Source of the DNA: a virus | IMG/VR virus record: IMGVR_UViG_3300029121_000001 | DNA length: 64,000 nucleotides | Reading direction: 5' to 3' (one strand) | Part shown: positions 26,514 to 51,375 of the stretch, one piece after another | Numbering within the stretch: the stretch's first letter is position 1 | Layout: each line of letters starts with the position of its first letter | Notes under the pieces: model-generated | What the model was told of the DNA's origin: nothing | Databases searched by the model: none | The model's input: only the letters and a program-made list of their open reading frames with translations | Made by a program: the position numbers and the translations under genes

Positions 26514-26774
26514 TTAAATATAAAGTATTTTAGAAGTGACTTTTCCTGAATATTCAGCTTGTAGACGTATCAATATAAAATAGCCTTTATTATCTTCATT
26601 ACGCTCCATATAAATGCCTGATATTGTAAATGGATGACTAGTATTATCACTAACATCTTTTATATATATTATTTGTAATGGAATTTTTGGATCTGGTACA
26701 TAATATATTGCTAACGTGCCACGCTGTACAGTAGTAATTGCGTCATCTATTTTAATTTTAGTAGAAGCGTCATT
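26514..26774 (-). CDS. Start-less cassette ORF 1 (NDASTKIK...KILYI), 86 codons
   Basis: Open frame beginning 2 codons after the TAA of cassette 2, in the same frame. Box variant TAATGACGCTTCTAC. First in-frame ATG is about codon 57. No SD. Confidence 0.5.
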   Translation of the reverse strand, partial: NDASTKIKIDDAITTVQRGTLAIYYVPDPKIPLQIIYIKDVSDNTSHPFTISGIYMERNEDNKGYFILIRLQAEYSGKVTSKILYI

Positions 26775-26776
26775 AT
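26757..26776 (-). repeat. Cassette box, copy 1 (TAAT-GACGCTTCTACTAAAAT)
   Basis: GACGCTTCTAC is identical to the other copies. The CT of CTGACG is missing. Confidence 0.8.
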
Positions 26777-26780
26777 GCTT

Positions 26781-27014
26781 TTAAATATATATTATATTTG
26801 CATAGGTGCTATATTTATCAAAATAAAATGTATCATTACCACTACCATGTGCATATGCAGCATATAGTTTATTATTATATTTATATATACCAGAATATTC
26901 TTCTCTAATTGATGGTGAATTTAATAAATCGTATCCTATTATTATACCTGCTAGTACATATCCTTTGGTTGCATCGATATATATTCCATCAAGCCTTTTT
27001 ATAGAAGCGTCAGA
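26781..27014 (-). CDS. Start-less cassette ORF 2 (SDASIKRL...ANIIYI), 77 codons
   Basis: Opens directly after TAA (27017-27015). No in-frame ATG, GTG or TTG anywhere and no SD. Closest paralogue is 44915-45139. Confidence 0.55.
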   Translation of the reverse strand, partial: SDASIKRLDGIYIDATKGYVLAGIIIGYDLLNSPSIREEYSGIYKYNNKLYAAYAHGSGNDTFYFDKYSTYANIIYI

Positions 27015-27018
27015 TTAT
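27001..27018 (-). repeat. Cassette box, copy 2 (ATAATCTGACGCTTCTAT)
   Basis: Preceded in the minus sense by the hairpin at 27034-27059 and T9. Confidence 0.85.
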
Positions 27019-27033
27019 AAAAAAAAATAAAAA

Positions 27034-27059
27034 GGAGTGAAGAGTAAAATCTTCACTCC
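27034..27059 (-). terminator. Hairpin terminator immediately upstream of cassette 2
   Basis: ggagtgaag-agtaaaat-cttcactcc followed by TTTTTATTTTTTTTT in the minus sense. Confidence 0.7.
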
Positions 27060-27066
27060 TTTTATC

Positions 27067-27237
27067 TTATTTGAAGAATATATTAAATGTGTCCATGTCT
27101 GGACCGTTGACCATTACACGTACATTTCGTGCACACACACAACATGGTCCGATGCAGTATTGTTCTCTGCAAGAGCAGTGGCAGCTCTTTTCATCTGCAG
27201 CAATTGCATAATTGCTACCATATGTATAAACTACTTT
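27067..27237 (-). other. 56-codon Cys-rich open frame continuing in frame after the TGA of 27238-27402 (no start of its own)
   Basis: KVVYTYGSNYAIAADEKSCHCSCREQYCIGPCCVCARNVRVMVNGPDMDTFNIFFK, then TAA. Locally raised GC. No SD and no ATG until codon 42. Confidence 0.4.
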
Positions 27238-27402
27238 TCATCCTTTAAAAGGAGGAATATAGTTCTCAACATCGATCGGGACAAATGCTCCGGATAGGAA
27301 ATCCAGTTCATTGATCCCGAGGATCTTGCACCTCCTAATATATTCTTCTTTACCGATTTTAAAATCGATGGGTTTACGACTCATGCGTAATACGTCAGCC
27401 AT
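27238..27402 (-). CDS. Hypothetical protein, 54 aa (MADVLRMSRKPIDF...)
   Basis: The ATG at 27402 follows AAGGAGG by 7 nt. TGA stop at 27240-27238. Confidence 0.65.
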   Translation of the reverse strand: MADVLRMSRKPIDFKIGKEEYIRRCKILGINELDFLSGAFVPIDVENYIPPFKG

Positions 27403-27472
27403 AATAGTCCTCCTTAAGACTTTCAATATAATGAATATTCTTTCTAAGAAGGAATACATTTATCCTTCTTAT

Positions 27473-27489
27473 CACTTTTATAATATATC
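27473..27489 (-). promoter_or_regulatory. Promoter-like box variant GATATATTATAAaaGTG
   Basis: About 71-76 nt upstream of the 27402 start. Confidence 0.35.
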
Positions 27490-27504
27490 AGTGAAATATT
27501 AAAA

Positions 27505-27535
27505 AATGAAATAGGATATAAAATCCTATTTCATT
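27505..27535 (-). terminator. Hairpin terminator
   Basis: aatgaaatagga-tataaaa-tcctatttcatt. Confidence 0.7.
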
Positions 27536-27540
27536 TATAT

Positions 27541-28185
27541 TTAATTTCCTTTAGTACTCTTAACACCAAAGCTTATAGCATCATCTTCCCTATCAGGTCC
27601 TACCATGAACTTAGCTTTGATATTCCTATCTTCAAGAATTTCATTAACTTTCTTTACATAGTTATGAGCATCCTTTTCATAATTCTCACTACCGTGATCC
27701 TTAAAATCAGGATATCCACTATAAGTATCACCATTCATAAGTTCGATAAATGCTTTCGGAGAACTACTGTAGTATTTACCAAAAGAAGATTCTCGTTCAC
27801 CCTCATCATTAATATGATCTTTATCATTAAGATCAACATAATCACAACATCTTTTCAACTTTGGAAAATCCATTAAAGTAGATGTAGCAATTGTCATGAT
27901 TCTACGAATTTCTTCTTTTGTCAAATGCTCAGGAGTTTGTTCTTTTTTCTCTTCACTTTTGTTCTTATCAGATTCAGACTTTGAATCTGAAGAAGATGAT
28001 TTCTTATCGTTTGATTTAGAAGAAGTTTTTTCTTTTTTATCGTCTTCTTCATCATCTTCCTCGTCGTCATCCTCATCTTCGTCATCATCATTATCTTCAT
28101 CTTTATCATCGTCATCATCCAAATATTGTGCATATTTAGAAACATATTTTTCATTCAAGATAAACTTTTTGTTGAATATAGACAT
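27541..28185 (-). CDS. Acidic/Ser-Lys low-complexity protein, 214 aa
   Basis: AGGAG SD. DDDDKDEDNDDDEDEDDDEEDDEEDD followed by KKSSSSDSKSESDKNKSEEKK. Confidence 0.7.
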   Translation of the reverse strand: MSIFNKKFILNEKYVSKYAQYLDDDDDKDEDNDDDEDEDDDEEDDEEDDKKEKTSSKSNDKKSSSSDSKSESDKNKSEEKKEQTPEHLTKEEIRRIMTIATSTLMDFPKLKRCCDYVDLNDKDHINDEGERESSFGKYYSSSPKAFIELMNGDTYSGYPDFKDHGSENYEKDAHNYVKKVNEILEDRNIKAKFMVGPDREDDAISFGVKSTKGN

Positions 28186-28211
28186 AATATATTCTCCTAA
28201 AAATAAAAGAA

Positions 28212-28721
28212 TTATTCAAGAAAATTATTATTTCTATCTCTAGTCATATAATCTTCTTTAATTCTTTCAGCCGTCATTTTAGTCATATCATTCTTAAATT
28301 CTTTATGGTTAAGACAATAATTATTATAATTGGTAATATCAAATAGTACTTGTTGGAAATGATCACGAGAATGATTCTTTCCATGACTAACTTCATCACC
28401 GAATCTTAAAATACGAGTTCTAGCTTCAACTGCTTTATTTTCATCAATAGTATAATCTATTTTATCGATCTTAGATTCTATACTATCAATTTGTTTTTGG
28501 ACCCTTTTGTTATTTTCATCTATCTTATTATTCATTCCATCAATCTTTTCTGATAAATCTTTAGTAATTGTACTCACTAGCCAATTATTAATATGGCCAA
28601 TAGGATCTATCTTTAAAGGATTAATTTTAATAAGAGTTCCGATAACAATAAGAATTCCAATTACAAGTCCAAGGTCTCCAGGCTTAGCAGTTATAGTTGT
28701 AAAGATCTCATATATAGACAT
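28212..28721 (-). CDS. Membrane-anchored coiled-coil protein, 169 aa
   Basis: AAAGGAG SD. N-terminal TM segment GDLGLVIGILIVIGTLI, then a heptad-like region. Confidence 0.65.
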   Translation of the reverse strand: MSIYEIFTTITAKPGDLGLVIGILIVIGTLIKINPLKIDPIGHINNWLVSTITKDLSEKIDGMNNKIDENNKRVQKQIDSIESKIDKIDYTIDENKAVEARTRILRFGDEVSHGKNHSRDHFQQVLFDITNYNNYCLNHKEFKNDMTKMTAERIKEDYMTRDRNNNFLE

Positions 28722-28784
28722 CTGGAAAAATCTCCTTTTATAATAAATATATTTGGTGCTTAACCAGAGCTATTAATGAGAACG

Positions 28785-30278
28785 CTATTTGTTAACAATA
28801 AATCTTGCTTTGTTCCCTCGTTTCAGATTTGTAGTAGTTTGAGGTTTACTATCTTCTATGATATGTCCATCATAGTAACATTTTTTCATGGACTCTTCAG
28901 TATCATGATCAGAAGTCCGTTCACTTTCTACAATTCTATTGCTCTGTGCTTTTGTCTTTTCGATAATCTTCTCATTTACATAACCACGGTCAATATAAAT
29001 TGCAATATAGAAATAGGTGTTAGGCGTATTAGAAGGAAGAATAATTTTTCTTTTTTTCCAATCCATTTGAATTGGTAACCGTCCAGTACCATCTATTGCT
29101 AAATCATTGGTATATATAGCGACTTCTATAAATACATCGGGATTTATGAATTGATTAATAGCATCTTGAATAAGATCATCCAAAGATGTACCAACCTTAA
29201 TATCTACCGGAGCTTTGAAAAGTTCTGTAATGTCTATGGATTCTATGCATTCTCCATCATCATTATCAGATGTATAATTACTATGACCATAGATAGGCCA
29301 ATGCTTATAATTTTCTTCAGGAATATCAAATACCTTCATAGAAACAACTTTAATAGCATCGTCTTTCTCAAGCTTAATAAATTCCTGAGTGTGCATTTCA
29401 TCATACAATGCAAATGTACGTACTGCAGGGAATCTAACTGCTATTTGAAATTCGATCATAAAGTTATTCTGAATCATTCCTACCTGATTTCCATCATCAA
29501 CATCAAGTTGATCTTGAAAATCAAGATGCACAGGAAGATTCCTCATTCTAAGAAAGTATTCATATTTCTGATTAATTTCTCTAAGCTTATATAGTATAGG
29601 CATCTGAGAATATTGATTAAGAAATCTTGTAAAATTCCATGGATCACTTACTTCTGTATTTGCAGCATCAACCATAAAACCAGAAGCTTTAGCCATCTCA
29701 ATAATCATGTCATTATCGAGATGAAAATCGCAATCTATATCTACTGTTTCTGTGCATCCTAAACGAAATACTTTACGAATTCTATTAAATAAATCTAACT
29801 GCTGAGCCTTTGTACTTACTCTAAATCTGAAGTTATAATTAATCATCATAGCTTCAAGATCCATACCAAGGTATACGCCTTTATGTGGACATTTAAAGAA
29901 GCTTCTCTGCCACTGAGACTTCTTTAAATACTTATTGGTACTAAGCAGATTCATATCGATATTATTGTCATTATAATCATATTGCACAGTGTAAGAAATT
30001 GCAACTGCAGGGTTATCCCTAATAGGGAAATTACCCTTCTGCAGTCTTCTGAAATCCTCAAATGGATGCTTACCTGAAACATGAATCGTAGTGAAATAAT
30101 TCTTAGGAAATCTACTCAAGACGTAATTGTAAATAAACTCAGTAGCTATAGATAAGGAGTGCACATAAGACGGTATAAAAAGATCACACTTTAGTGATGG
30201 ACGAAATCTATCTACATTAACTATATTTAGCATTTCTTCATCACTGATTTCCTGCTTAGAATCTATACTACTCGGCAT
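28785..30278 (-). CDS. Hypothetical protein, 497 aa
   Basis: ORF with an AAAGGAG SD. Confidence 0.75.
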   Translation of the reverse strand: MPSSIDSKQEISDEEMLNIVNVDRFRPSLKCDLFIPSYVHSLSIATEFIYNYVLSRFPKNYFTTIHVSGKHPFEDFRRLQKGNFPIRDNPAVAISYTVQYDYNDNNIDMNLLSTNKYLKKSQWQRSFFKCPHKGVYLGMDLEAMMINYNFRFRVSTKAQQLDLFNRIRKVFRLGCTETVDIDCDFHLDNDMIIEMAKASGFMVDAANTEVSDPWNFTRFLNQYSQMPILYKLREINQKYEYFLRMRNLPVHLDFQDQLDVDDGNQVGMIQNNFMIEFQIAVRFPAVRTFALYDEMHTQEFIKLEKDDAIKVVSMKVFDIPEENYKHWPIYGHSNYTSDNDDGECIESIDITELFKAPVDIKVGTSLDDLIQDAINQFINPDVFIEVAIYTNDLAIDGTGRLPIQMDWKKRKIILPSNTPNTYFYIAIYIDRGYVNEKIIEKTKAQSNRIVESERTSDHDTEESMKKCYYDGHIIEDSKPQTTTNLKRGNKARFIVNK

Positions 30279-30311
30279 TATTCTACTCCTTTCTCTATAG
30301 AGATTATTATA

Positions 30312-30488
30312 TTAAAGTTCTGGATCACCAACAACGCACTCAGGACATTTTCTTTTATCAAGGCAATACTTGCAATCATATTTAAACTCACATGATTCTA
30401 TACACTTAGAATATGTAATCATGCAAAACATTTCTCCATCTTCTGATATAGATGAATAAATACAATTAAACTTAGATTTGTGTTCCAT
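30312..30488 (-). CDS. Cys-rich small protein, 58 aa (not in the ORF track)
   Basis: The ATG at 30488 follows AGGAGG by 8 nt. MEHKSKFNCIYSSISEDGEMFCMITYSKCIESCEFKYDCKYCLDKRKCPECVVGDPEL has 8 Cys, including CxxC-type pairs. Confidence 0.6.
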   Translation of the reverse strand: MEHKSKFNCIYSSISEDGEMFCMITYSKCIESCEFKYDCKYCLDKRKCPECVVGDPEL

Positions 30489-30560
30489 AATAAAACCTCC
30501 TGTTTATTAAAGTTTTAATATGGTGTTTTAAAATATGTATTTAATCAAAAAAAAAATAAA

Positions 30561-30589
30561 GAGGAGTGGGCAAATGGAACCCACTCCTC
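30561..30589 (-). terminator. Hairpin terminator
   Basis: gaggagtggg-caaatggaa-cccactcctc followed by TTTATTTTTTTTTT in the minus sense. Confidence 0.8.
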
Positions 30590-30598
30590 AATATCGGA

Positions 30599-30979
30599 TT
30601 ACTTCTTATCGATATTGGTATCGGTATCAGTAGTCTTGCCCGTTTCGCCCAATGCCAATGCTGAGTCAGTCATAAACCCAACATGATACGATGCCATCTG
30701 AAGTCTCATGATATTATCGAGCATATTGATACACACATCGATGATTGCGATCTGTGTATCAAGATCGCAATGCTTTTCGGTGATCTCCTGAATGCCATCG
30801 ATATTTTTGCAGATGGCATTGACAAGCTTATCACGATCAACACGGGCATTGATATATGCAAGATACTTCTTCCCTTCACGAGAACTGAGAAGCATCTCAG
30901 CAGCAACGTCTTCAATGCTCATGTTAACATTCTTATCACCATCCTGATGAATAAATCCGCGTCCTTTGTTCATGTCCAT
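30599..30979 (-). CDS. Hypothetical protein, 126 aa
   Basis: The track start is a TTG inside the SD. The ATG at 30979 follows GGAGG by 8 nt. Raised GC. Confidence 0.7.
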   Translation of the reverse strand: MDMNKGRGFIHQDGDKNVNMSIEDVAAEMLLSSREGKKYLAYINARVDRDKLVNAICKNIDGIQEITEKHCDLDTQIAIIDVCINMLDNIMRLQMASYHVGFMTDSALALGETGKTTDTDTNIDKK

Positions 30980-31031
30980 AGTTTTAACCTCCAAAAATTA
31001 TTTCTAACAAAGGATCCATTTCCCTTTGTTT

Positions 31032-31047
31032 CATCTTTATAATATCT
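31032..31047 (-). promoter_or_regulatory. Promoter-like box AGATATTATAAagATG
   Basis: Exact consensus, 53-58 nt upstream of the 30979 start, followed by a caaagg(g)a/tcctttg hairpin. Confidence 0.5.
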
Positions 31048-31064
31048 ATTTAAGATAATATAAA

Positions 31065-32491: not shown

Positions 32492-32516
32492 TTTACAATC
32501 CTCCAATAATTAAAAA

Positions 32517-32543: not shown

Positions 32544-32552
32544 GATTGTTAT

Positions 32553-38191: not shown

Positions 38192-41100
38192 ATGCAGTCT
38201 ATTATTCTTGCAGAATCAGTTGTTGCTAATACTGCTAAGAGTACTTATCAAAAGAAATATAAGTGCCCTTATTGTGATAAACGATTTGTAAGAGCAAAAC
38301 TTCATATTCATATTCAAAATGAACATGAAGATCTTATACCTGAAGGTTATACTGCTCTTAGAGTAGCATTCAATACTATTAATCATAAAACAGAAGGTCA
38401 TTGCATTATGTGTGGTGCAGTGACTGATTGGAATGAAGACAAAGGTAGATATGAAAGACTCTGCAATAATCCTAAATGCCATGAAGCATATAAGAAGATG
38501 GTTGCAGAACGTACTAAGAAAAAGTATGGCACAGAACGTCTTCAGACAGATCCAGAATATGCAGAATATGTTCAAAGAAAAGCACTTGCTGGACGCAAAA
38601 TGCATGGAGAATATAAATTTGCTGATGGTGGAGTAATTGAGTATTTCGGAAGTTATGAAAAGAAATTCCTTCAGTTTATGGATCAAATAATGCATTGTAA
38701 ATCTGAAGATATTCTTGCTCCTGCTCCTAGTATCAAATATATTTATAATGGAGAGCAGCATCTATATATTCCTGACTTCTATTATATTCCTTATAATCTT
38801 ATTATAGAGATTAAAGATGGTGGAAGTAATCCGAATAACCATCCTCATCGTACTGGAGAAGATGAACTTAAGCTTAGATGTAAAGAAGAAGCTATTATAC
38901 AGCTTAATGAATTTAGCTATGTAAGAGTAGTTAATAATGACTTTAGCCAAGTATTGAGTATCATGGCAGTGCTTAAATATAACATGGCTCATAGATACAA
39001 AGACCCTGTTGTTAAGGTAAATGAGAGTACGCTTCTAGAAACTGCTAGTATAGTAGATAAGAATTTCAAGCCTAAAGACAGAATTAATCTATATTCTTTG
39101 AAGAAAGTTCATATCACGGAAGCCGTCATTGAAAAGTATAAGAAACAGTATCCTGATCTGCGTCATGTTAGATGCAAAGATACTGATACTTATAAATGTG
39201 ATGGATATATGTGGTTTGATAATGAGAATCTAGTAGCCCAAGTAGGATCTTGTGAGTATCTAGATGATGGAACAAAATGGATTGTAAGTCTAGATATTAT
39301 GAAAGATTATAAGGGTCATGGTTTAAGTAAACAAATTCTTGATTTTGCAACTAAGATCATGAAATGCAAATATCTTTCTGTAGATAAAAATAATAAACTT
39401 GCAAAAATGATTTATGATCAGTATGGATTTAAAGTTTATTATGAAGATGATAAGATGTACTACATGACTCTAGAAGCAAATCCTGTAAAGGTCAATGAAT
39501 CTACTTTATTAGAATCTGTATCTAATAATTATCCTAAGGATCTTTATAACTGGATGAAGGCAAATATTACATATAAATCTACTGGAATTCTTCTATCACC
39601 TGAAGAGGTAGAAGAATATGGATATGGAGATTGTCATGATCAGGCAAATTATATTCATAGTAAATTGTCTACTAAAGATATTTCTAATGGAAGATTATTT
39701 GTGATTGAATATAATGATCTAAATTCTCCTGCAGGAAAAACTCATACTGCTGCTTATTATAAGCAGAATGGAAAGTATTATTGGATTGAAAATGCTTGGT
39801 ATGAGCAAACTGGAATCCATGGTCCTTATAATAGTATTTTCGATCTTAAAATTGCTATTGTAAATGTATGGGTTTGGGGTAATTATAAGAATCTATATAT
39901 AGGCTCTGTAAATAGATCTAAAATTAAGAATGGTATGAATCTAAATGATTATGTAAATGCTTGTCTTCCTGAGAATGAAAAAATGATTAAGCCTTTTATT
40001 ATCAATGAAGATAATACCAATCATATTAAGAATAAAGTTGTTGAGTCTATGTCTGATACTATTGGTGGTGCATTACCACTAACTCCTAATCCTATTCCTT
40101 ATGAATCTAATAAAGATAATTATTACATTATCCAGCATATGGAGAATAATGCTTTTGCTTATTCTCTTACTAAAGATCCTGTACAATATACAATGTATTC
40201 TGTAGATCCTGAATCTAAAGGATTTTATAAAGTTTTTAAGTCTGATAAGAGTAAGATTAATAAAAAATATTCTACTTTTAAGATCAAGGATCGCCAAAAA
40301 GCAAAAGAACTTTATGATGAATTAGCAAAGATTGAATCTTCTAATTCTAAAACTTTCTTTGCTGGAGATACTTCTAATGATTATATTTATCAACGTCTAA
40401 CTGAAGGCTCTAAAATAATTTCTGATGATCAAATTAGATATGATACTAGATTTGAAGAAGTTAAAAACTTCAATGAAGAAGTTCAAGATATCTGTGAATC
40501 TGTAAGAAATTTCATTCTTGGTGATCCCATCACTAGACTAGAAGAGCAGGTATCTACTCTATCCAATCTAGTAAATATCAATGAATCTTCTAATTATGTC
40601 TCTAGTGATTATGACATGATTACTAGTATAGAAGATTATGATAATAAAGTTCTTAAAGCAAAAACTGCTGAACAAATGGGTTTAATTATTCTATATCCTG
40701 AGTTTAAATATGGTACTTGTAATAAAAATACCATTGATAAACTTAAGAAGAAATATGCAGACTTTAATGCTCTTTCCCAAGAAAAAAGAACTCTATCTAA
40801 TAGAACAGCATATCATATCTTTGGATATGATAATGATACTCTATATAGTAAGCTACTTAATCTCTATGTATCAACAACTATGAAATCCGGAGGAGGATCA
40901 GAAGGATATTCATATAATACTATGAGATCTATTACTCCTCCTATTGAGCAATATTATAAACCTGGTGAAAAAGTTGGTACAGTTAGTTCTGATACTAAAG
41001 TGGCTAGAGAATCTTTTACTGATGATTCTTCTTGGAGACAAGTTGTAAGCAAACTTTGTCTAGAAGCAAATAACACAAGTGATGCAAAAAAGAAAAATGA

Positions 41101-41902
41101 TCTCAAAAATGAGATCATCAATCTTGGATGGAATCCTGAAATTCCTTTCAATGAAGAAGCCATTACTAGAGTAAAAAATATGAGACATAAGCTTCATATT
41201 TTTACAGAGGTGGATGCTGAAGAGTATATCAGAAATATTCATACTTTCAATGAAGCTACTTATAATCAATTGAAAGATAAGATTGTTCCTGTATTCATTT
41301 GCCTATTCAAAGGTAAAGCTCTTCATAGTAGAGGAATTGAGCTGTATACCGGATCTGAATGGTCTCATGCTGCAATATCATTCGATTCTTCTATGAAACA
41401 AATGTATACATTTAATATGAATCCTAAAGTAACTTCTAATGGAATATCTAAAGGATTTACTATTGAAAGTATAGAAGCTTATTGGAAAATAGATCCTTCT
41501 ATCAAATTCAAAGTTCATGCTCTATTTGTTACAAAAGAGCAAAAGATTATGATGGAAGATGCAATCAAATGGTATGTAACTCATCAGAATGAAACTAAGT
41601 ATTCTTTTAAAACCATTATCAATATTGCTCTAAAACGAGTATCAGATTTTGGTTCTGAATATGCAAATAAAACTGAAATGGTATGTAGTCAGTTTGTATA
41701 TACTATTTTGGCAATTGCAGATTTCAAAACTAAGGTCACTAAAGATGCAAGTCTAGTAAGTCCTGGAGATCTTGATACTAGTATTGATGATAGACTATAC
41801 TCTATGTTTATTGGAGGTATTGGCCTATATAGTAGTAAAAAGATTGATAGAATGGTTAGACAAATCATTCCTACACTACCATTAGATAAGTATAATATTT
41901 AA
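38192..41902 (+). CDS. Polyvalent multi-domain protein: C2H2 and Cys4 zinc fingers + PD-(D/E)xK nuclease-like + GNAT acetyltransferase + transglutaminase-like Cys protease + long linker + permuted papain-like (YiiX/C92-like) domain
   Basis: YKCPYCDKRFVRAKLHIHIQNEH. HCIMCG...LCNNPKCH. YIPDFYY...LIIEIKDG. DIMKDYKGHGLSKQILDFA...YGFK. YGYGDCHDQANYI...GKTHTAAYY...WIENAW. EWSHAAISFD...MVCSQFVYTIL...VSPGDL. AAGGAGG SD. Confidence 0.7.
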   Translation: MQSIILAESVVANTAKSTYQKKYKCPYCDKRFVRAKLHIHIQNEHEDLIPEGYTALRVAFNTINHKTEGHCIMCGAVTDWNEDKGRYERLCNNPKCHEAYKKMVAERTKKKYGTERLQTDPEYAEYVQRKALAGRKMHGEYKFADGGVIEYFGSYEKKFLQFMDQIMHCKSEDILAPAPSIKYIYNGEQHLYIPDFYYIPYNLIIEIKDGGSNPNNHPHRTGEDELKLRCKEEAIIQLNEFSYVRVVNNDFSQVLSIMAVLKYNMAHRYKDPVVKVNESTLLETASIVDKNFKPKDRINLYSLKKVHITEAVIEKYKKQYPDLRHVRCKDTDTYKCDGYMWFDNENLVAQVGSCEYLDDGTKWIVSLDIMKDYKGHGLSKQILDFATKIMKCKYLSVDKNNKLAKMIYDQYGFKVYYEDDKMYYMTLEANPVKVNESTLLESVSNNYPKDLYNWMKANITYKSTGILLSPEEVEEYGYGDCHDQANYIHSKLSTKDISNGRLFVIEYNDLNSPAGKTHTAAYYKQNGKYYWIENAWYEQTGIHGPYNSIFDLKIAIVNVWVWGNYKNLYIGSVNRSKIKNGMNLNDYVNACLPENEKMIKPFIINEDNTNHIKNKVVESMSDTIGGALPLTPNPIPYESNKDNYYIIQHMENNAFAYSLTKDPVQYTMYSVDPESKGFYKVFKSDKSKINKKYSTFKIKDRQKAKELYDELAKIESSNSKTFFAGDTSNDYIYQRLTEGSKIISDDQIRYDTRFEEVKNFNEEVQDICESVRNFILGDPITRLEEQVSTLSNLVNINESSNYVSSDYDMITSIEDYDNKVLKAKTAEQMGLIILYPEFKYGTCNKNTIDKLKKKYADFNALSQEKRTLSNRTAYHIFGYDNDTLYSKLLNLYVSTTMKSGGGSEGYSYNTMRSITPPIEQYYKPGEKVGTVSSDTKVARESFTDDSSWRQVVSKLCLEANNTSDAKKKNDLKNEIINLGWNPEIPFNEEAITRVKNMRHKLHIFTEVDAEEYIRNIHTFNEATYNQLKDKIVPVFICLFKGKALHSRGIELYTGSEWSHAAISFDSSMKQMYTFNMNPKVTSNGISKGFTIESIEAYWKIDPSIKFKVHALFVTKEQKIMMEDAIKWYVTHQNETKYSFKTIINIALKRVSDFGSEYANKTEMVCSQFVYTILAIADFKTKVTKDASLVSPGDLDTSIDDRLYSMFIGGIGLYSSKKIDRMVRQIIPTLPLDKYNI

Positions 41903-44881: not shown

Positions 44882-44910
44882 GTCCCTATGGACTTTTAAT
44901 CCATAGGGAC
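44882..44910 (-). terminator. Hairpin closing cassette 3
   Basis: gtccctatgga-cttttaa-tccatagggac. Confidence 0.6.
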
Positions 44911-44914
44911 GATT

Positions 44915-45139
44915 TTAAATATATATTATATTAGCATAACTACTATAGTTTCTAAAATCGAACCCACTGCTCCAGTCAAATCCATATGTAGCATATACTT
45001 TACCGTTATATTGATATGCTGTAAAATATTCAGATTGTCCTGGACTATCTAATAAATCACATCCTATCATTGTGCCATTTAATGGATATCCACTAGTAGT
45101 AATATAAATATTATTAAGCTTTTTTATAGAAGCGTCAGA
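44915..45139 (-). CDS. Start-less cassette ORF 3 (SDASIKKL...ANIIYI), 74 codons
   Basis: Opens directly after TAA (45142-45140). First in-frame ATG is at codon 23. No SD. Paralogue of 26781-27014. Confidence 0.55.
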   Translation of the reverse strand, partial: SDASIKKLNNIYITTSGYPLNGTMIGCDLLDSPGQSEYFTAYQYNGKVYATYGFDWSSGFDFRNYSSYANIIYI

Positions 45140-45143: not shown

Positions 45144-45155
45144 AAAAAAAATAAA

Positions 45156-45179
45156 AGGTGGGCGAATGAAACCCACCCC
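45156..45179 (-). terminator. Hairpin terminator upstream of cassette 3
   Basis: aaggtggg-cgaatgaaa-cccacc(cc)tt followed by TTTTATTTTTTTT in the minus sense. Confidence 0.6.
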
Positions 45180-45228
45180 TTCCGTAAAATTCTGATTGAT
45201 ACAGGATCTGTCAATTGTATACTAACGT

Positions 45229-45555: not shown

Positions 45556-45637
45556 AATAATTAACCTCCTTTTATGATGATGAAACAATCCGAAATAGAG
45601 AATTCTTATATTCCTATCTCAATTTTATATTATGTAA

Positions 45638-45922
45638 GTGAAAATATACACTTTAAATAAATCTGACGCTTCTATTAAGATAAAGAATAAAATTGTAAAT
45701 GTAAAAGATTATTATACATTTAGAGATGGTATCATATTAAATACCTGCCTTATGACGTATTCTAATGTAAGTTATTCATATAGGCCATTTATTCAAGTGC
45801 GTTACGATAATAATGATAATAGTTATAGTATTAGAATACAATGTATCATTAATAGTGATATTGATGGATATAATTTCGATAATAGTGTGAATGATGGAAG
45901 TATTATAATATATTATATATAA
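45638..45922 (+). CDS. Cassette ORF 4 (MKIYTLNK-SDASIKIK...SIIIYYI), the only plus-strand copy
   Basis: The frame opens right after TAA with a GTG 8 codons before the box. No SD. Ends in IIYYI like 51132-51371. Confidence 0.55.
   Translation: MKIYTLNKSDASIKIKNKIVNVKDYYTFRDGIILNTCLMTYSNVSYSYRPFIQVRYDNNDNSYSIRIQCIINSDIDGYNFDNSVNDGSIIIYYI
45658..45676 (+). repeat. Cassette box, copy 4 (TAAATCTGACGCTTCTATT)
   Basis: Inverted relative to all the other copies. Confidence 0.85.
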
Positions 45923-45926
45923 AATA

Positions 45927-45955
45927 ATCCAGTAGGAATTAAATTCCTACTGGAT
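45927..45955. terminator. Bidirectional hairpin terminator
   Basis: atccagtaggaatt-a-aattcctactggat between cassette 4 and the radical SAM gene. Confidence 0.75.
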
Positions 45956-45962
45956 ATTATTG

Positions 45963-47297
45963 TTACTTATTAAATGCTTCTTTTTCTAGATTAAATAAAT
46001 AATCAGCTTCTTCTTTACCAAGAATATCTACTACTTCATTATATGGAAGATTGATCTTTGTTGGATCTTTATCTCCTAACTCAATACATCTTCTATTATA
46101 ATAGTAATAGTATCCTAATACTCTACCTTTATGAGCATAACAAATTCCAGTATATCTTTTATTCGCAGTTCCATATAATTCATAATTATATGCAGAACAC
46201 CAACCACAATTCAAAGATACAGGACAATCAATACACTTCTTTGGAGATTGAGAAGTGAATGTTATAGAATCAAGTTCTTTCTTGATATTCTTACTACTCT
46301 CTGATTTAAATAATCCATTAAAGCAATCACCAATAATAATTTTATTAGCTTTCTCTTTTCCAATAGATATAGGAGCATATCTAATACAAGGATAAGCATT
46401 GCCATCTGGGTCAAATGCCATCATATGACCGGTACCACCACAGAAATTCTTATCATCATGCTGTAGATTGACTGCTCCTCCGAGAGTAGAATCAAGTAAA
46501 GCTACAATAGCATTACTTTTATTTTGAATTAAATAATTAGAAAGCTTCTTTAATTCAAAATAAATATTCTTTGCATCACTAATAGAATATTCTGGTTCAT
46601 ATGCAAAATTGCAATTAACAAGGTTACATCCATTCTCAATCATCATCTTAATAGATGGAGTAATATATTGAACAGAATTGGGAACAAATGTCATTTTACT
46701 ATTCGCTGAACCATAAATATTTTTTACATCAAGAAATGCTTTATATGCTTTTTCAAATGATCCTTCTCCATATCTATCGATTCTATATTTATCATGAAGA
46801 TCTTGAATACCATCAATAGATACAGTAATTGATAAGAATTCTTTATACTTATGCACAAAATGTTGTACATCTTTATCAAACCAATTCTGACCATTTGTAG
46901 CAAAAGCAATTCTAGTAAATTGAGCAATAGGAATATTCCTTAAATAGCATTGATGAAAGAAATAATCACATATTTCTTCTACTAATTTTGCTTCTAGCAT
47001 TGGTTCTCCACCAATAAAATCAAGAATAATACTTTTTGTATTCTTATTGATAAAATCAGTGTCATTATCCTCATACATATCTAGAATTCTATCAATACAT
47101 TTTTTACCAATATAGAGAGACATAGATCCATCAGACTTATGATGTTCATAACAATAAGAGCAACGAAGATTACACTGATTTGTTACCTGAAATGTAATTT
47201 CTCGTGCAGCCTCCATTTTTCGATCTTCTCCATTTGAAAAAATCTCTCGAATATACTCACCATAATTGTCTCTAGATCGACTATTAATACTTACCAT
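45963..47297 (-). CDS. Radical SAM enzyme with C-terminal SPASM/twitch-type auxiliary cluster domain (anSME / peptide-maturase-like)
   Basis: CNLRCSYC (CX3CX2C), GGEPML, then CGGTGHMMAFDPDGNAYPC, CIDCPVSLNCGWC and GICYAH. The start overlaps the upstream stop (ATGGTAA). Confidence 0.85.
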   Translation of the reverse strand: MVSINSRSRDNYGEYIREIFSNGEDRKMEAAREITFQVTNQCNLRCSYCYEHHKSDGSMSLYIGKKCIDRILDMYEDNDTDFINKNTKSIILDFIGGEPMLEAKLVEEICDYFFHQCYLRNIPIAQFTRIAFATNGQNWFDKDVQHFVHKYKEFLSITVSIDGIQDLHDKYRIDRYGEGSFEKAYKAFLDVKNIYGSANSKMTFVPNSVQYITPSIKMMIENGCNLVNCNFAYEPEYSISDAKNIYFELKKLSNYLIQNKSNAIVALLDSTLGGAVNLQHDDKNFCGGTGHMMAFDPDGNAYPCIRYAPISIGKEKANKIIIGDCFNGLFKSESSKNIKKELDSITFTSQSPKKCIDCPVSLNCGWCSAYNYELYGTANKRYTGICYAHKGRVLGYYYYYNRRCIELGDKDPTKINLPYNEVVDILGKEEADYLFNLEKEAFNK

Positions 47298-47584
47298 GTT
47301 AATTCTACCTCATTATTATCGAAATCAAATTCATATTCTATAGAAGAAGGAACTTTTCCGATTATAGAGGCAATAAGAGTATTTACGTTTACCATAAATT
47401 CAATATAGGCATTCTGATAATCTACTCTATATTTATCTATCATAGCTGCAGTTTCTGCGGATTTATTTTCTGCAAATTCACGAGCCAATACACAAATGAA
47501 ATTTTTATAACTCATCATAATATAATGAAGTCTTTCAATTGTAATAGATTGCTCTTTATCAATATTAACTTTCTTTTTCTGCAT
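47291..47584 (-). CDS. Hypothetical helical protein, 97 aa, translationally coupled to the radical SAM gene
   Basis: The track start is a TTG. The ATG at 47584 is more likely. Overlaps both neighbours. Confidence 0.6.
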   Translation of the reverse strand: MQKKKVNIDKEQSITIERLHYIMMSYKNFICVLAREFAENKSAETAAMIDKYRVDYQNAYIEFMVNVNTLIASIIGKVPSSIEYEFDFDNNEVELTW

Positions 47585-48185
47585 TATTATTAGTCTCCAT
47601 TTCAATCAGATGATAAGCTGTAGTTTCAGTTTTAAGAGATTCATATCGATCTCTTATATAAAAAATTTTATCGAGAATCCTGATAAGAAGACTATTGTCT
47701 CTATCCTTTTCTTCAATCATCTTATTAGCAATTGAACGTAGCACAGTATAAAGACAATATACATGAAAATTAGAATTTGTACTCATACTTAGAAAAATGT
47801 TTATTTTATTATTATCTATAGGAAATCCATCAATAACAGTAAAATTGCATTTATCTGAATATGTCTTTAAAGTAATTGTATATATAGTAAGAAGTATTTC
47901 TTCATCTGTAGCATCATAATTACATGCTGAAAAAATACTAGATACTACAGAACTTACATATTTTGCATAATCATGTATATTAATAGAAAAGTCAGAATGA
48001 CAAAGTGTGCAAAAATAATCTATATAACAAAATTCGGGTTCTTTAGATATATTATCAAAAATAATAAGCATATCTTTAGTAATTGGATCCATTGAAAGAA
48101 ATCTATTAAGTAAGAAATTCTTTTTAAAGAATTTATCATTTTTAGAATAATTTATAGTAAAGGTATCATTAGTAATATCTATCAT
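47565..48185 (-). CDS. Hypothetical protein, 206 aa
   Basis: GGAGG SD. Same operon. Confidence 0.7.
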   Translation of the reverse strand: MIDITNDTFTINYSKNDKFFKKNFLLNRFLSMDPITKDMLIIFDNISKEPEFCYIDYFCTLCHSDFSINIHDYAKYVSSVVSSIFSACNYDATDEEILLTIYTITLKTYSDKCNFTVIDGFPIDNNKINIFLSMSTNSNFHVYCLYTVLRSIANKMIEEKDRDNSLLIRILDKIFYIRDRYESLKTETTAYHLIEMETNNNAEKES

Positions 48186-48198
48186 AAAATATCCTCCA

Positions 48199-48756
48199 TT
48201 ACATTAACCAAAATCCACATCCAGAGCAAGATTCACAAGTATGAGCACATCCAGATCCACACCCTTCGCATCCATCACACCCTCCACTACATCCTCCACT
48301 ACATCCAGAGCAAGTAGTGTTACATCCTCCACTACAATTTGTTTTACAATTTCCAGAACATCCTTTACAACCACCATAGCAACCAGTATTGCACAATCCA
48401 CTACAAGATGCTTTACATCCAGTAGAGGTCGCATCTTTAGCAATTTTAGAAAGATTGCCTACTGATGTAGTAGCATTTGTAAGTACACTAGCAATAACAT
48501 TAGCATTTTTATCAGGAGTTGTATTACTACCAGTAACAGCATCCAAAGGTTTAGTAATCTTTTGAATGTGTTCTAAATTGATTTTAATATCTTTACCTTG
48601 AGCTGGTGTAGTAGTATAATCATATGAAGTTCCATTATAGGATTTCATACTTCCAACACTTGCTGAATTTGATCTACGTGTAATCTCCGATTTTACGAGT
48701 TTCTTAAGTGCAGTAAAATCACTAGCATTAATTAATTCGCTTTTTTTAATACCCAT
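48199..48756 (-). CDS. Protein with extreme Cys/Gly/Ser-rich C-terminal tail, 185 aa
   Basis: The last 74 residues contain 19 Cys spaced CX2C/CX3C (GCKASCSGLCNTGCYGGCKGCSGNC...CSGGCSGGCDGCEGCGSGCAHTCESCSGCGFWLM). AAGAGGG SD. Confidence 0.75.
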   Translation of the reverse strand: MGIKKSELINASDFTALKKLVKSEITRRSNSASVGSMKSYNGTSYDYTTTPAQGKDIKINLEHIQKITKPLDAVTGSNTTPDKNANVIASVLTNATTSVGNLSKIAKDATSTGCKASCSGLCNTGCYGGCKGCSGNCKTNCSGGCNTTCSGCSGGCSGGCDGCEGCGSGCAHTCESCSGCGFWLM

Positions 48757-48760
48757 AATA

Positions 48761-49270
48761 TTACCCTCTTACACGAATGCGTACTCGACGAATATCTGTA
48801 TTAAGATCTTCATCGACTGCATATCCTACAATTTGTGTATTTTCTACTATTTCATCATGAAGTTTTGCTTTACCAACTCCAGAAATATCAGAAACTATAA
48901 TAGTATCTCCACGATGAATTTCTCCAATACACTTACAGTATACACGGCCACATAGTGATACAGGAATATATTTCTTAATATTCTTAGAAATATAATCATC
49001 ACTATTATCATATTGATCACCACCAATAATCATAGCATATTCATCAGAATGAACACCTGCAATAATACTACTTTTATTAGTAGCTTTAATATAGCTTTCT
49101 TTATCAGAAGATAGATCAAGAGCAATAATATCTCCAGGTTCTGTATATTCTCCTCTAGGGAAGAATTCTGCATAGTCATTATATACAGCACCATAACATT
49201 TACTAAATTTTGCTACACCATTTTTATCTACATAATAACTAGCACTACCAAAATTAATAGTACCCGTCAT
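48761..49270 (-). CDS. Hypothetical protein, 169 aa, first gene of the radical SAM operon
   Basis: GGTGGA SD. NDYAEFF...PGD...GRVYCKCIGEIHRGDTI recalls modules seen in phage fibre-associated proteins (unverified). Confidence 0.65.
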   Translation of the reverse strand: MTGTINFGSASYYVDKNGVAKFSKCYGAVYNDYAEFFPRGEYTEPGDIIALDLSSDKESYIKATNKSSIIAGVHSDEYAMIIGGDQYDNSDDYISKNIKKYIPVSLCGRVYCKCIGEIHRGDTIIVSDISGVGKAKLHDEIVENTQIVGYAVDEDLNTDIRRVRIRVRG

Positions 49271-49282
49271 TGTTCCACCAGA

Positions 49283-49310
49283 CTTAAGAAGATAAGCGTC
49301 AAATTATTAT
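49283..49310 (-). repeat. Cassette-box variant in the 5' leader of the radical SAM operon (ATAATAATTTGACGCTTATCTTCTTAAG)
   Basis: Shares ATAAT, TGACGCTT and CT..TAAG with the cassette boxes. Here it is followed by an SD and ATG 12 nt downstream of the box end. Confidence 0.6.
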
Positions 49311-49338
49311 AATTTTAATATATTTCAAAAAAAAGAAA

Positions 49339-49366
49339 AACCAATAGAGAGAAATCTCTATTGGTT
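49339..49366 (-). terminator. Hairpin terminator closing cassette 5
   Basis: aaccaatagaga-gaaa-tctctattggtt. An inverted paralogue of 51390-51417 with a compensatory pair change. Confidence 0.75.
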
Positions 49367-49371
49367 TATAA

Positions 49372-49587
49372 TTAAATATAATACACTATACAAGATATAT
49401 TATCATCCGTCCAAGTTGATGTATTACTACCTAAAGTAAAATGAATACAATATATCCAAGATGATTTAGATATAAATGCAATATAATTATAATAGTTTTC
49501 TTTAATTGCAACAGATATTGGAATTCCTAATGTAAACTTTTGTCCTGATTTAAAATCTATACTCTTAATTTTAGTAGAAGCGTCAGA
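49372..49587 (-). CDS. Start-less cassette ORF 5 (SDASTKIKSIDF...CIVYYI), 71 codons
   Basis: Opens directly after TGA (49590-49588). The only in-frame ATG/GTG/TTG is a GTG 4 codons before the stop. No SD. Confidence 0.55.
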   Translation of the reverse strand, partial: SDASTKIKSIDFKSGQKFTLGIPISVAIKENYYNYIAFISKSSWIYCIHFTLGSNTSTWTDDNISCIVYYI

Positions 49588-49590
49588 TCA
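49572..49590 (-). repeat. Cassette box, copy 5 (TGATCTGACGCTTCTACTA)
   Basis: Preceded in the minus sense by the hairpin at 49606-49632 and T10. Confidence 0.85.
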
Positions 49591-49605
49591 TTCAAAAAAA
49601 AAATA

Positions 49606-49632
49606 AAAGCATGAAATTAGATTTCATGCTTT
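49606..49632 (-). terminator. Hairpin terminator upstream of cassette 5
   Basis: aaagcatgaaat-tag-atttcatgcttt followed by TATTTTTTTTTT in the minus sense. Confidence 0.75.
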
Positions 49633-49646
49633 TATTTTATGATATC

Positions 49647-50390
49647 TCAAATATGTTCTTTTATAATATCAATAATTGCCTTAATCAATCTTCTTTCATC
49701 GTGCTTTTCAATATTACTATTACTGCAAAAATCATTGAATTTTGTTCTAAAGTTTTCAATATCAGAAGAAGTCATATAAATATGAGATAATTGTGTCATA
49801 CTTAAAAGATTATAGTCTGGTTTTCCGAATAGATCATTATAAAGTTTGTCAACCAAGTATTCTTTTCTTTTTTGATCAATACATCTTATCCATACATCTC
49901 CAAGAGTGATAGAATCACTATTATTGACATTGATATATAATTCATATATATTTTCTAAAAGTCTAATGGTAATGACTACTTTATTATCAGAATCTAATTT
50001 TTTACTAATAAATTCCAAAGATTCAATCATTCTATTTGTTGTATTAATATTATGACAATTAATAAAATATCTTATCATATCATCATTATTTAATTTAATT
50101 TTACGCATCCTTCTACCAGATAATACTTTGTTACTGTTACAAAATGCAATAGATTTGAACTGCTCATATTTATCTTTAGCACATTCATAACTTTCAAAAT
50201 TATATCTACTAATTTTAACCTTTTTACCTCCATTAATATCGAATATAATATTTCTAATTGTAATAACATATGATAGATAATCATTATAACTATAACTTTC
50301 AATCATAACACATGTTTTACTATCAGAAGAATATCCCAATAAACTAACCATAATATCATCTTTTATAGTAGTAATAAATCTTTCTCTCAT
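49647..50390 (-). CDS. Hypothetical protein, 247 aa
   Basis: ORF with an AAAGGAG SD. Confidence 0.7.
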   Translation of the reverse strand: MRERFITTIKDDIMVSLLGYSSDSKTCVMIESYSYNDYLSYVITIRNIIFDINGGKKVKISRYNFESYECAKDKYEQFKSIAFCNSNKVLSGRRMRKIKLNNDDMIRYFINCHNINTTNRMIESLEFISKKLDSDNKVVITIRLLENIYELYINVNNSDSITLGDVWIRCIDQKRKEYLVDKLYNDLFGKPDYNLLSMTQLSHIYMTSSDIENFRTKFNDFCSNSNIEKHDERRLIKAIIDIIKEHI

Positions 50391-50447
50391 TGTAATTCTC
50401 CTTTATTTTAGATAATTTAAAATAGAGTACATTATTCTCTATTTCTT

Positions 50448-50463
50448 CAATTTTATAATATCT
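50448..50463 (-). promoter_or_regulatory. Promoter-like box AGATATTATAAaaTTG
   Basis: 58-63 nt upstream of the 50390 start, followed by an aaatagag/ctctattt hairpin. Confidence 0.5.
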
Positions 50464-50541
50464 AATTCAAAATCATTATATATATAACGATATTTCACAT
50501 CATAATAATTCTCAAAACTTTTCATAAAGGAGACAATTATT

Positions 50542-51045
50542 ATGAATTTTAATATGAAACAACTTCATACTATCTATGAATGTGATACCAATGATCAGAC
50601 TGGAGCAAATCTAGATAATACTCTTTCTTCTAATAATCTTCTAGATATCTTTGATAATATTTGTCCTATTACTGGTGATATCTATAAGACCATGAAGAAT
50701 GCTGCTGCAGATCCTAAGAATCTAAAGGTTACTGCTGCTAAGTCTGGAGATGGAGAGAAAGCAAGTCTTTTCATTGAAGCTGTAGAGTTTATGACTTATG
50801 TAGAAGCTTCTGGTAAGACTATTGGTGAAGCAGCAGAAGATATTGTAGATACTTATCAATCTGATATCCCTGGTATGGCAAGTGATGATATCCATGTTGT
50901 ATTTCCCAGTGATGCTCTTAATAAAAATAATCTCGGCAGTCAGAATTATGGCAGAGATGTTAAGAACGATTGGGCAATGCAACTTATGACTGGAATTCGT
51001 AGATATGGCCTAAAGGCAAATATTGGAGTTGACGAAAGTAAATAA
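50542..51045 (+). CDS. Hypothetical protein, 167 aa
   Basis: ORF with an AAAGGAG SD. Confidence 0.7.
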   Translation: MNFNMKQLHTIYECDTNDQTGANLDNTLSSNNLLDIFDNICPITGDIYKTMKNAAADPKNLKVTAAKSGDGEKASLFIEAVEFMTYVEASGKTIGEAAEDIVDTYQSDIPGMASDDIHVVFPSDALNKNNLGSQNYGRDVKNDWAMQLMTGIRRYGLKANIGVDESK

Positions 51046-51098
51046 GTATTTATAAATTCTCAATATAGTATATAGTAAAACATATTCGAATTAAAATA

Positions 51099-51126
51099 AT
51101 CCACTAGAGATTCTTCTCTAGTGGAT
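51099..51126. terminator. Bidirectional hairpin terminator (TAGAGA-core family)
   Basis: atccactagaga-ttct-tctctagtggat. Confidence 0.75.
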
Positions 51127-51131
51127 TTTAT

Positions 51132-51371
51132 TTATATATAATAAATTATTGCTGTACCTGATACACAGTTATCAACATCATGTGAATTATATCCAGTATT
51201 TGCACATATATAATATAAATTTTCAGTATAATATTTATTATTCATTGTTATACTACACACAGGATAATTAGTACCATTATATATTAATACAGCAGATATT
51301 GGCGTTCCTGGTACAGAAAAATAACTTGACACTTTTACTGTTATATTTTTAATCTTAGTAGAAGCGTCAGA
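51132..51371 (-). CDS. Start-less cassette ORF 6 (SDASTKIKNITVKV...GTAIIYYI), 79 codons
   Basis: Opens directly after TGA TAA (51377-51372). The track catches only the part from an internal GTG (51332). No SD. Confidence 0.55.
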   Translation of the reverse strand, partial: SDASTKIKNITVKVSSYFSVPGTPISAVLIYNGTNYPVCSITMNNKYYTENLYYICANTGYNSHDVDNCVSGTAIIYYI

Positions 51372-51375
51372 TTAT
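51356..51375 (-). repeat. Cassette box, copy 6 (ATAATCTGACGCTTCTACTA)
   Basis: Preceded in the minus sense by the hairpin at 51390-51417 and T12. Confidence 0.85.

Follow-up and report, generated by a model that had tools for sequence, protein, structure and literature searches.

Introduction

In the shufflon of IncI plasmids such as R64, the tyrosine recombinase Rci acts on sfx sites with a 7-bp core to exchange the C-terminal segments of pilV; these segments are few and clustered behind pilV, their sites are inverted, and inversion is the only event. The Gin-driven G segment of phage Mu, Cin of P1 and Min of p15B depend on serine invertases that act at two to six inverted crossover sites beside the constant part of a fibre gene. 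In the vsa locus of Mycoplasma pulmonis, a bacterium, the tyrosine recombinase HvsR works at vrs sites, and inversions within one chromosomal cluster exchange surface lipoproteins. Integron cassettes are complete genes that carry folded attC hairpins and move to a fixed promoter, and Neisseria pilE/pilS and Borrelia vlsE rely on non-reciprocal copying over longer homology. Here we describe a family of start-less open reading frames (ORFs) in a viral genome, IMG/VR record IMGVR_UViG_3300029121_000001, of which we analysed a stretch of 64,000 nucleotides (hereafter the window, meaning the whole of that stretch). Each of these ORFs, or cassettes, opens at a short invariant box, CTGACGCTTCTA, and cassettes of the same types are fused in sister phages to a common N-terminal head.

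On the strength of DNA comparisons between related genomes, we consider it highly probable that the box-led ORFs of the window are silent alternative C-terminal modules, which would be activated when a mobile promoter-head element arrives at the box. The promoter, a Shine-Dalgarno sequence (SD), an ATG and a head of 137 amino acids (aa) would travel together on an element of ~840 or ~944 bp, and recombination inside the 7-bp sequence TGACGCT would put this element ahead of a cassette. The product would be an in-frame head-N/DAS-cassette gene whose stop codon and terminator are those of the cassette, while the former left flank of the site would end up joined to a three-codon stub (DA/ITK-stop). 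The reverse reaction would free the element as a circle or leave a tandem copy, and the same reaction between adjacent boxes would remove single cassettes; the putative catalyst is the Xer/integron-integrase-like tyrosine recombinase of the clade. All seven box-led modules of the window are predicted to be in the silent state, with head and recombinase elsewhere in the genome.

The likeness to the shufflon lies in a constant N-terminal adhesin part with alternative start-less C-terminal segments that open at a short in-frame invariant repeat (85 unique box-led ORFs here), in a 7-bp core together with a candidate tyrosine recombinase, and in conservation mainly on one side of that core. However, instead of a cluster behind the constant part that only inverts, we find dozens of cassettes scattered across more than 200 kb; both strands carry them, head-to-tail arrays occur, and the events are insertion or excision of a 0.84-0.94-kb promoter-head unit and precise cassette deletions. 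As with Gin, Cin and Min, a phage would alter the C-terminal receptor-binding part of a fibre by site-specific recombination and the unused alternatives are start-less, but our library has many more members, and it is the constant part that moves. The parallel with vsa is that one expression site, which supplies promoter and 5' coding end, is combined at a short site in the coding region with numerous silent genes that lack their 5' part; here, in contrast, the carrier is a lytic-type jumbo phage, the head is excisable and the targets are dispersed. Integrons likewise have an Xer-related tyrosine recombinase, head-to-tail promoterless units, precise excision from direct arrays and a small circular intermediate. 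In our case, however, the cycle is the head element and not a cassette, promoter and 5' half move to fixed cassettes, the site lies within the reading frame and creates fusions, the 0-14-nt array spacers are free of hairpins, a fixed attI/Pc platform is not seen, and the match to integron integrases is below cut-off. The pilE/pilS and vlsE systems offer a similarly large reservoir of start-less, promoter-less partial genes for one surface protein, whereas the products at our locus look reciprocal and conservative, with the 7-bp core at both junctions; the expression unit relocates, the junctions have no more than a 7-10-nt core in common, and conservation of the 3' ends is seen at the protein level but not in the DNA. 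What appears to be new is that the promoter-bearing 5' half of a gene does the moving and that a jumbo phage carries so large and dispersed a library. Our literature search found no description of such a system; the shufflon is mentioned in PMC9881135.

The Box Opens Start-less Reading Frames

With at most one mismatch allowed, the 12-mer CTGACGCTTCTA occurs six times in the window, where 0.10 copies are expected by chance and none of 100 shuffles reached this number. Every copy provides the opening codons of a start-less, SD-less ORF, and these six ORFs extend for 71-86 sense codons from box to stop in DNA with a local GC content of 28-32%. Their alignment shows a weak protein family (18-26% identity) with an xDAS(T/I)K N-terminus, a GIPI-like motif and an ..I(I/V)YYI C-terminus. 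A sequence-only reading of the window had already listed the six copies, their frames and the common protein frame, as well as TAA or TGA directly 5' of TCT GAC GCT TCT in four copies, the absence of any in-frame ATG, GTG or TTG from 26781-27014 and a lone late GTG in 49372-49587 (codon 68 of 71), all of which we could confirm. The hairpin, T-run and -10-like sequence that it placed before four copies are also there, the runs comprising 8-11 T and the sequence that follows being ATAAT, GATAAT or GAATGAT. Its six cassettes are real, but a seventh box-led module (48761-49303) had escaped it. Similarly, its statement that each unit has its own terminator is correct for the cassettes at 44915, 45638+, 49372 and 51132, which are followed by terminator-like hairpins, but not for the one at 26781, which lacks its own because the cassette at 26514 begins 6 nt later.

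The sequence-only reading had further taken a GTG upstream of the plus-strand box for a canonical start codon. The GTG is present; however, it is probably part of a promoter-like repeat and not a start, as the 26-nt motif that contains it (CTCAATTTTATATTATGTAAGTGAAA) recurs at 15007-15032. This motif, TTCAATTTTATAYTATRYAAGTGAAA, occurs on the plus strand of the window in these two places (15007-15032 and 45618-45643) and in the relatives L069, L081, L094 and L120; in L094 it is followed by an in-frame stop ahead of the box. It stands before both an ordinary SD gene (the 15007-15032 copy) and cassettes, and probably represents a class of phage promoter. The box itself was considered as a promoter and rejected, one copy lying ~25 nt downstream of a different recurring promoter-like motif and the array copies showing no fixed -10 spacing.

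Over 85 unique sites from the window and its relatives the consensus is (A/T-rich) N TGACGCT TCT A..AA, with TGACGCT(TCT) as the strictly invariant core. The base 5' of the core is C, A or T and never G, and G is absent from both positions that precede it. GAC is fixed in the box although GAT would be expected in DNA of 31% GC, and synonymous codons vary in the C-terminal cassette motif but not in the box, which bears out the earlier view that the constraint on the box acts on the nucleotide sequence. In the first set examined from the window and relatives, 34 of 40 box-led ORFs have no canonical in-frame upstream start, and a stop codon abuts codon 1 in 18; the N-terminal extensions that gene finders assign to cassettes are unrelated chance extensions of the ORF. 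Box-led ORFs do not present the in-frame start and ribosome-binding site of an ordinary gene, and the description of them as neither ordinary genes nor decaying pseudogenes holds.

Such frames might be expressed where they stand, by unconventional SD-independent initiation at the box from an out-of-frame NTG, a near-cognate AUA/AUU or a leaderless 5' end. The base before TGACGC indeed yields CTG, ATG or TTG and never GTG, the upstream stop in arrays sometimes overlaps this NTG as TAATG or CTGA, and a -10-like hexamer adjoins the box in solo copies. The NTG, however, lies in the +1 frame, which closes after 4-37 codons and contains no slippery site, and no rRNA complementarity, tRNA, tmRNA or Rfam element was found. 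We regard initiation at the box as very improbable, given that a complete conventional route of expression (see below) removes the need for it. Specifically, a +1-frame NTG start with frameshifting or with termination-reinitiation at an upstream ORF was rejected on the length of the +1 ORFs and the absence of a common shift site. The codon that overlaps the +1 stop is AUA in 24 of 40 cases against a background of 49% among xTA codons, which is not significant, and AUA and AUG taken as main-frame codons at this stop are not significantly preferred either. Comparison of the box with Escherichia coli 16S and 23S rRNA gave no convincing complementarity (the rRNA of the host itself may differ), and neither tRNA, tmRNA, intron nor ribozyme was found in the window, nor intron or ribozyme in the spacer of the head element. 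The T-run and TATAAT ahead of solo cassettes are better read as the terminator of the upstream gene than as a leaderless promoter; terminator and T-run would insulate these cassettes and may perhaps form the left arm of the site too.

Cassettes Are Fused to a Common Head in Sister Phages

The window has no match in the annotated phage collection, and its close relatives are contigs of about 250-276 kb from IMG/VR and human-gut metagenomes. These were found with a longer pattern; a scan of the collection with the bare 14-mer gave mostly chance matches. Homologues of the 180-aa module at 48761-49303 include sister-phage proteins of 310-315 aa, in which a 137-aa head, M.NVDHIKVGSTSYDISPSPTG...IYSMNQTLTSLN, is followed by DAYLLKSGGTMTG. 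This conserved head, also written M.NVDHIKVGSTSYDISP...IYSMNQTLTSLN, has its own SD and ATG in sister phages. One of them (L122) shares 94% identity with the window in the flanks. There, the head with its SD and ATG runs at AATGACGCTTAT into the module that stands without a head at 49303 in the window, and homology between the two genomes restarts precisely at the box, which in L122 lies inside the gene.

A search with the head alone returned 83 proteins, the majority of 205-242 aa, in which the head is fused at N/DAS(T/I/F/L/M)K to varied small cassettes ending in ..IVYYI. These head-fused proteins were missed by a hidden Markov model (HMM) search with 35 cassettes, which returned only proteins of 85-113 aa. 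The cassette types of the window align with head-fused counterparts from residue 1 to residue 1 at 36-89% identity, the exception being the cassette at 51132, for which only a weak match was found. One long cassette (P0231 type) is fused to the head in three contigs and silent in 20, and in its silent copies gene callers start at an internal ATG. The head was not found in the window, and the loci that hold it in L123 and L124 are absent from the window as well.

The sequence-only reading had offered four explanations. Its first, that recombination at the box links cassettes to an expression site, fits the comparative DNA data and was borne out in that orthologues are fused in frame to a larger ORF, the 137-aa head; the fixed expression locus that it implied is not seen, and the site is itself a mobile element that lands before a cassette. 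The other three (non-AUG or leaderless initiation, RNA-level joining and precursors of ribosomally synthesized and post-translationally modified peptides, RiPPs) are unsupported and have become unnecessary, as head-cassette fusions with a normal SD and ATG exist in DNA. Joining of RNAs at the box, by trans-splicing or a spliced leader, would suit a box that is invariant as nucleotides, and a role of the cassettes as RiPP precursors would suit the radical SAM gene at 45963-47297. Nevertheless, we give both next to no credence: many samples yielded assembled DNA that contains the fusions, neither intron nor ribozyme was found (Rfam search of the window; spacer of the head element), the cassettes are predicted to fold as beta domains of 70-300 aa on a fibre-like head, and the radical SAM gene of a sister genome has its own adjacent candidate substrate with Cxxx repeats (a faint match).

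The Head Element Occupies Different Sites

Together with ~430 bp of upstream spacer, the head forms an element that is 92-94% conserved and occurs in size classes of 836-840 bp and about 944-949 bp. It ends in ...CTA AAT GAC GCT, which is the box that opens every cassette. The position of the element differs among genomes, with at least nine left flanks and at least ten partner modules over 20 loci. The left junction always consists of the target's own flank and NTG/ACGCT followed by ATTACGAAGTAG (which reads as a DAITK-stop stub), and the right junction of ...CTAAATGACGCT followed by the cassette body (also written AAATGACGCT followed by TCT..). All junctions fall within the 7-bp core TGACGCT. 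In one genome (L137) the element is inserted at an internal cassette of an array, with no terminator ahead of that cassette.

Empty and occupied states of one site were found in L148 and L147, respectively: L147 has exactly 944 bp more, inserted between two copies of TGACGCT. The empty site reads ..ttatttcaatc TGACGCT tctaagaat.., and the occupied one has the core at both ends of the insert; identity between the two genomes is 99.97% in the 3 kb downstream of the site and 96.6% on the upstream side. The same comparison revealed two single cassettes precisely deleted between neighbouring boxes. A third state is suggested by a 1085-bp MEGAHIT contig (L126) with a 141-nt terminal repeat equal to k, which corresponds to a 944-bp cycle. 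This cycle has the sequence of the element in circularly permuted form, closed at TGACGCT so that the head reads into the stub, and it is 98-99% identical to the insert of L147.

In the relatives, the box opens every member of the family, whether it stands in a head-to-tail array (spacers of 0-14 nt) or in a divergent pair or is a longer module of 170-307 aa; the fragments examined hold 85 unique box-led ORFs, seven of them in the window. Flanks are 94-96% identical between genomes, yet the cassette behind a given flank may be a different member of the family. This is the case in the nearest relative of the window (contig A, L119), which has one different cassette at the place orthologous to 26781 between flanks of that identity, and a different cassette type after the same hairpin as at 44915 (L081 6417). 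The cassette at 51132 is missing from L122, which has a single hairpin there, and is kept in L125 at 90% nucleotide identity. With one hairpin in L122 against two in the window, cassettes also seem to be gained and lost together with a hairpin. The ratio of nonsynonymous to synonymous substitution rates (dN/dS) between cassette orthologues is 0.45-1.1, compared with 0.06-0.12 for a neighbouring ordinary gene, and fits diversifying or intermittent selection. Degraded box-led ORFs also occur, such as one of 21 aa in L120 (position 1180).

Variation between otherwise similar genomes, dN/dS values near 0.5-1.1 and degraded ORFs such as that of L120 would also be produced by evolutionary shuffling of modules, that is, by occasional illegitimate or homologous recombination at the box with neither dedicated recombinase nor programmed switching, the headless copies being leftovers; the circumstantial link to a recombinase would likewise agree with this. 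However, the shared homology amounts to just 7-10 nt, and yet the crossover lies in the same 7 bp at no fewer than nine independent sites. In addition, the exact insertion within 99.97% identical flanks implies events much faster than point divergence, the length of the circular-junction contig is exactly that of the element, and single cassettes are precisely deleted. More than 85 cassettes have retained open frames and the invariant core with GAC fixed, and each keeps its own terminator, since the fusion gene would need one. Taken together, we consider shuffling alone unlikely as an account of the locus.

Recombination at the box by a mobile head element, the explanation we prefer, leaves one feature of the element itself unexplained. 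A third box, inverted, lies ~270 bp after the stub and is kept in both size classes. If it recombined with the box of the head, the promoter-head segment would be inverted and the head would continue into a stub of 7 aa (SYSLQLL) and a stop. A further inverted pair of boxes was found at L056 6915/6936; since inverted pairs exist, inversion may occur as well. We also noted a second, diverged head paralogue, MASVNKVKVETD..., 58-59% identical to the head, in L127 (ENA ERZ27271590 k95_34715) and in L146 (8418-8741). It occupies a fixed locus with a strong SD and in L127 also reads into a DAITK stub, and genomes may hold more than one head. Long modules are joined mostly to the 944-bp class of element, and the two size classes may serve different subsets of cassettes.

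A Candidate Recombinase

Tyrosine recombinases typically have a 7-bp identical overlap. Among 76 ORF representatives of the sister loci we found one tyrosine recombinase, a protein of 329 aa (L139 5793-6779) with the motif HPHRFRR...LGH...Y (R..HxxR..Y). It scores as XerA/XerC/XerD-like and, more weakly, as integron-integrase-like, with all scores below the family cut-offs: integron-integrase HMMs match it at 9e-29, and TIGR02249 gives 100.8 bits against a cut-off of 265. Among the close relatives the protein is conserved, with 92% identity in contig A and 99-100% in three others; its counterpart in a 288-kb phage is 63% identical. The gene is situated 1.3 kb upstream of a cassette site; two genomes have this site empty, and in a third the head element sits there. 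No recombinase was found among the window ORFs scanned, and no member of a resolvase/invertase family either among these or among the 76 representatives, which stand for ~170 kb of related sequence. From conservation and position, we infer that this recombinase catalyses the recombination at the box. The 288-kb phage (L145) showed no TGACGCT boxes in the 13 kb fetched; at 8470-9970 it encodes a helicase-like protein with eight tandem units of ~189 bp, an ordinary tandem-repeat protein.

Several observations weigh against the mechanism that we propose. Recombinase and box are linked by co-occurrence and proximity alone, and no inverted-repeat arms typical of Xer sites are evident around the core. 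The three states of the site (empty, occupied and circular) were each taken from a separate assembly and not from one phage population, and the cyclic de Bruijn path could reflect a tandem duplication and not a free circle. A dN/dS of 0.45-1.1 is equally compatible with relaxed constraint. The tip, or cassette, fold gave no PDB match in a fold search, and the assignment as a fibre is based on weak PHROG matches (E 1e-4 to 1e-7) and motifs. Finally, head, recombinase and rearranged junction all lie outside the window, and the evidence for expression comes from sister genomes only.

It is tempting to speculate further that the system is an "inside-out integron", in which the Xer-like recombinase moves a minicircle of ~0.9 kb (promoter, start and N-terminal half) among more than 40 dispersed start-less modules, often during infection, so that each genome would hold dozens of specificities and release a mixed burst. 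This extended version is possible, but we hold it tentatively and stop short of favouring it.

Fold and Proposed Function of the Modules

Searches of the cassettes and their neighbours against Pfam, PHROG and PDB returned almost nothing, and the small cassette matched no Pfam or PHROG family. The head paralogues and the module at 48761-49303 (hereafter the DAY module) gave weak matches to tail-fibre PHROGs (E 1e-4 to 5e-7), and among homologues we found fibre repeats (PF22337) and an intramolecular-chaperone domain (PF11962). PF11962 is present in homologues of the DAY module, and the full-length proteins P0026, P0044 and P0060 consist of head and DAY module. The window copy, for which ORF finders choose an ATG within the GGTMTG motif, is predicted from these matches to be a tail-fibre-like module with a C-terminal intramolecular-chaperone domain; its box represents an empty integration site. 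An AlphaFold model of a head joined to a cassette shows a long helix (residues 121-137) that ends in LTSLN and passes directly into a beta domain, with a predicted local distance difference test score (pLDDT) of 91-96. As the beta domain starts right after the helix, the model suggests that the box encodes the hinge between neck and tip. The modules would bind receptors, so that switching would change host range, and we infer that recombination is frequent enough to act as a switch; swapping of cassettes would probably let a human-gut jumbo phage alter its binding targets.

If true, the library would exceed by one or two orders of magnitude the known host-range switches, which have been described from a handful of phages and offer two to six alternatives. 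Gene callers miss the cassettes or assign false starts, and as a result many frames of gut jumbo phages would look non-coding or start-less. Breaks in the assemblies of these phages tend to lie around the head element, whose mobility would explain them. The 7-bp core would also provide a compact natural site which, with the candidate recombinase, might be used for in-frame domain swapping, and the response of gut phages to variable host surfaces becomes testable with existing read-level data.

Features of the Window and Neighbouring Genes

The box-led modules and associated sequences are listed in Table 1.

Table 1. Box-led modules of the window, all putatively silent, with associated sequences and the inverted box of the head element
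Feature	Position	Strand	Protein or sequence	Box	Hairpins	Head-fused counterpart (identity)	Remark
Cassette	26514..26774	-	NDASTKIK...KILYI, 86 aa + stop	26762-26773 (-), variant ATGACGCTTCTA		P0154 (36%)	Second of two-cassette array
Cassette	26781..27014	-	SDASIKRLDG...ANIIYI, 77 aa + stop	27002-27013		P0228/P0148 (51%)	
Terminator hairpin	27015..27064	-	GGAGTGAAGA...TCTTCACTCC + T9 + ATAAT				Abuts box; possible left arm of site; same architecture as left junction of head-element insertions in sister genomes
Cassette	44915..45139	-	SDASIKKLNN...ANIIYI, 74 aa + stop	45127-45138	Upstream 45153-45181; downstream terminator 44882-44910	C-terminal module of P0148/P0228, NCBI DAN22965.1 (78%)	
Promoter-like 26-mer	45618..45643	+	CTCAATTTTATATTATGTAAGTGAAA				Recurring; contains supposed GTG start
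Cassette	45662..45922	+	SDASIKIKNKIV...IIIYYI, 86 aa + stop	45663-45674	Terminator 45927-45955	P0146 (46%)	ORF from 45638
DAY module	48761..49303	-	FDAYLLKSGGTMTG..., 180 aa + stop	49292-49303, variant TTTGACGCTTAT		P0026, best match (89%)	Seventh box-led module
Cassette	49372..49587	-	SDASTKIKSIDF...CIVYYI, 71 aa + stop	49575-49586	Upstream 49600-49638; downstream terminator 49338-49367	P0145 (47%)	
Cassette	51132..51371	-	SDASTKIKNITV...AIIYYI, 79 aa + stop	51359-51370	Two similar, 51389-51418 and 51098-51127	P0193 (weak match)	
Inverted third box of head element	L122 9847; L123 5846; L124 5846; L125 321; L126 924	- (L122 to L125)					In sister genomes

The terminator hairpins of the cassettes (both at 51132, and those downstream of 44915, 45662 and 49372) fall into two families, CCAnTAGAGA..TCTCTAnTGG and GGAGTGRR..YYCACTCC.

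The radical SAM enzyme encoded at 45963-47297 on the minus strand matches phrog_1802 (6.5e-56) and is accompanied by downstream genes at 47291-48756. In L122 a gene beside the fibre gene faintly matches PF27846, a Cxxx-repeat family of radical-SAM targets, which suggests a separate peptide-modification operon unrelated to the cassettes. Two long ORFs of the window were also noted. The first (38192-41902, plus strand, 1236 aa) unites an N-terminus resembling an endonuclease (phrog_15137, 4e-43) with a GNAT acetyltransferase domain and a C-terminus resembling enoyl-CoA hydratase, a combination that is unusual for a phage. The second (19356-22472, minus strand, 1038 aa) is internally repetitive, with nine stretches matched to phrog_13589 (2.7e-104).

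The sister loci, among them L128 (4645-6357), encode an RNA polymerase beta'-like fragment, a gyrase A/B-like protein, thymidylate synthase, dihydrofolate reductase (DHFR) and a T4-type prohead protease. They also contain an HNH/NUMOD4 endonuclease and one reverse-transcriptase match (RVT_1, 1e-12), which could mark a diversity-generating retroelement, a retron or an intron.

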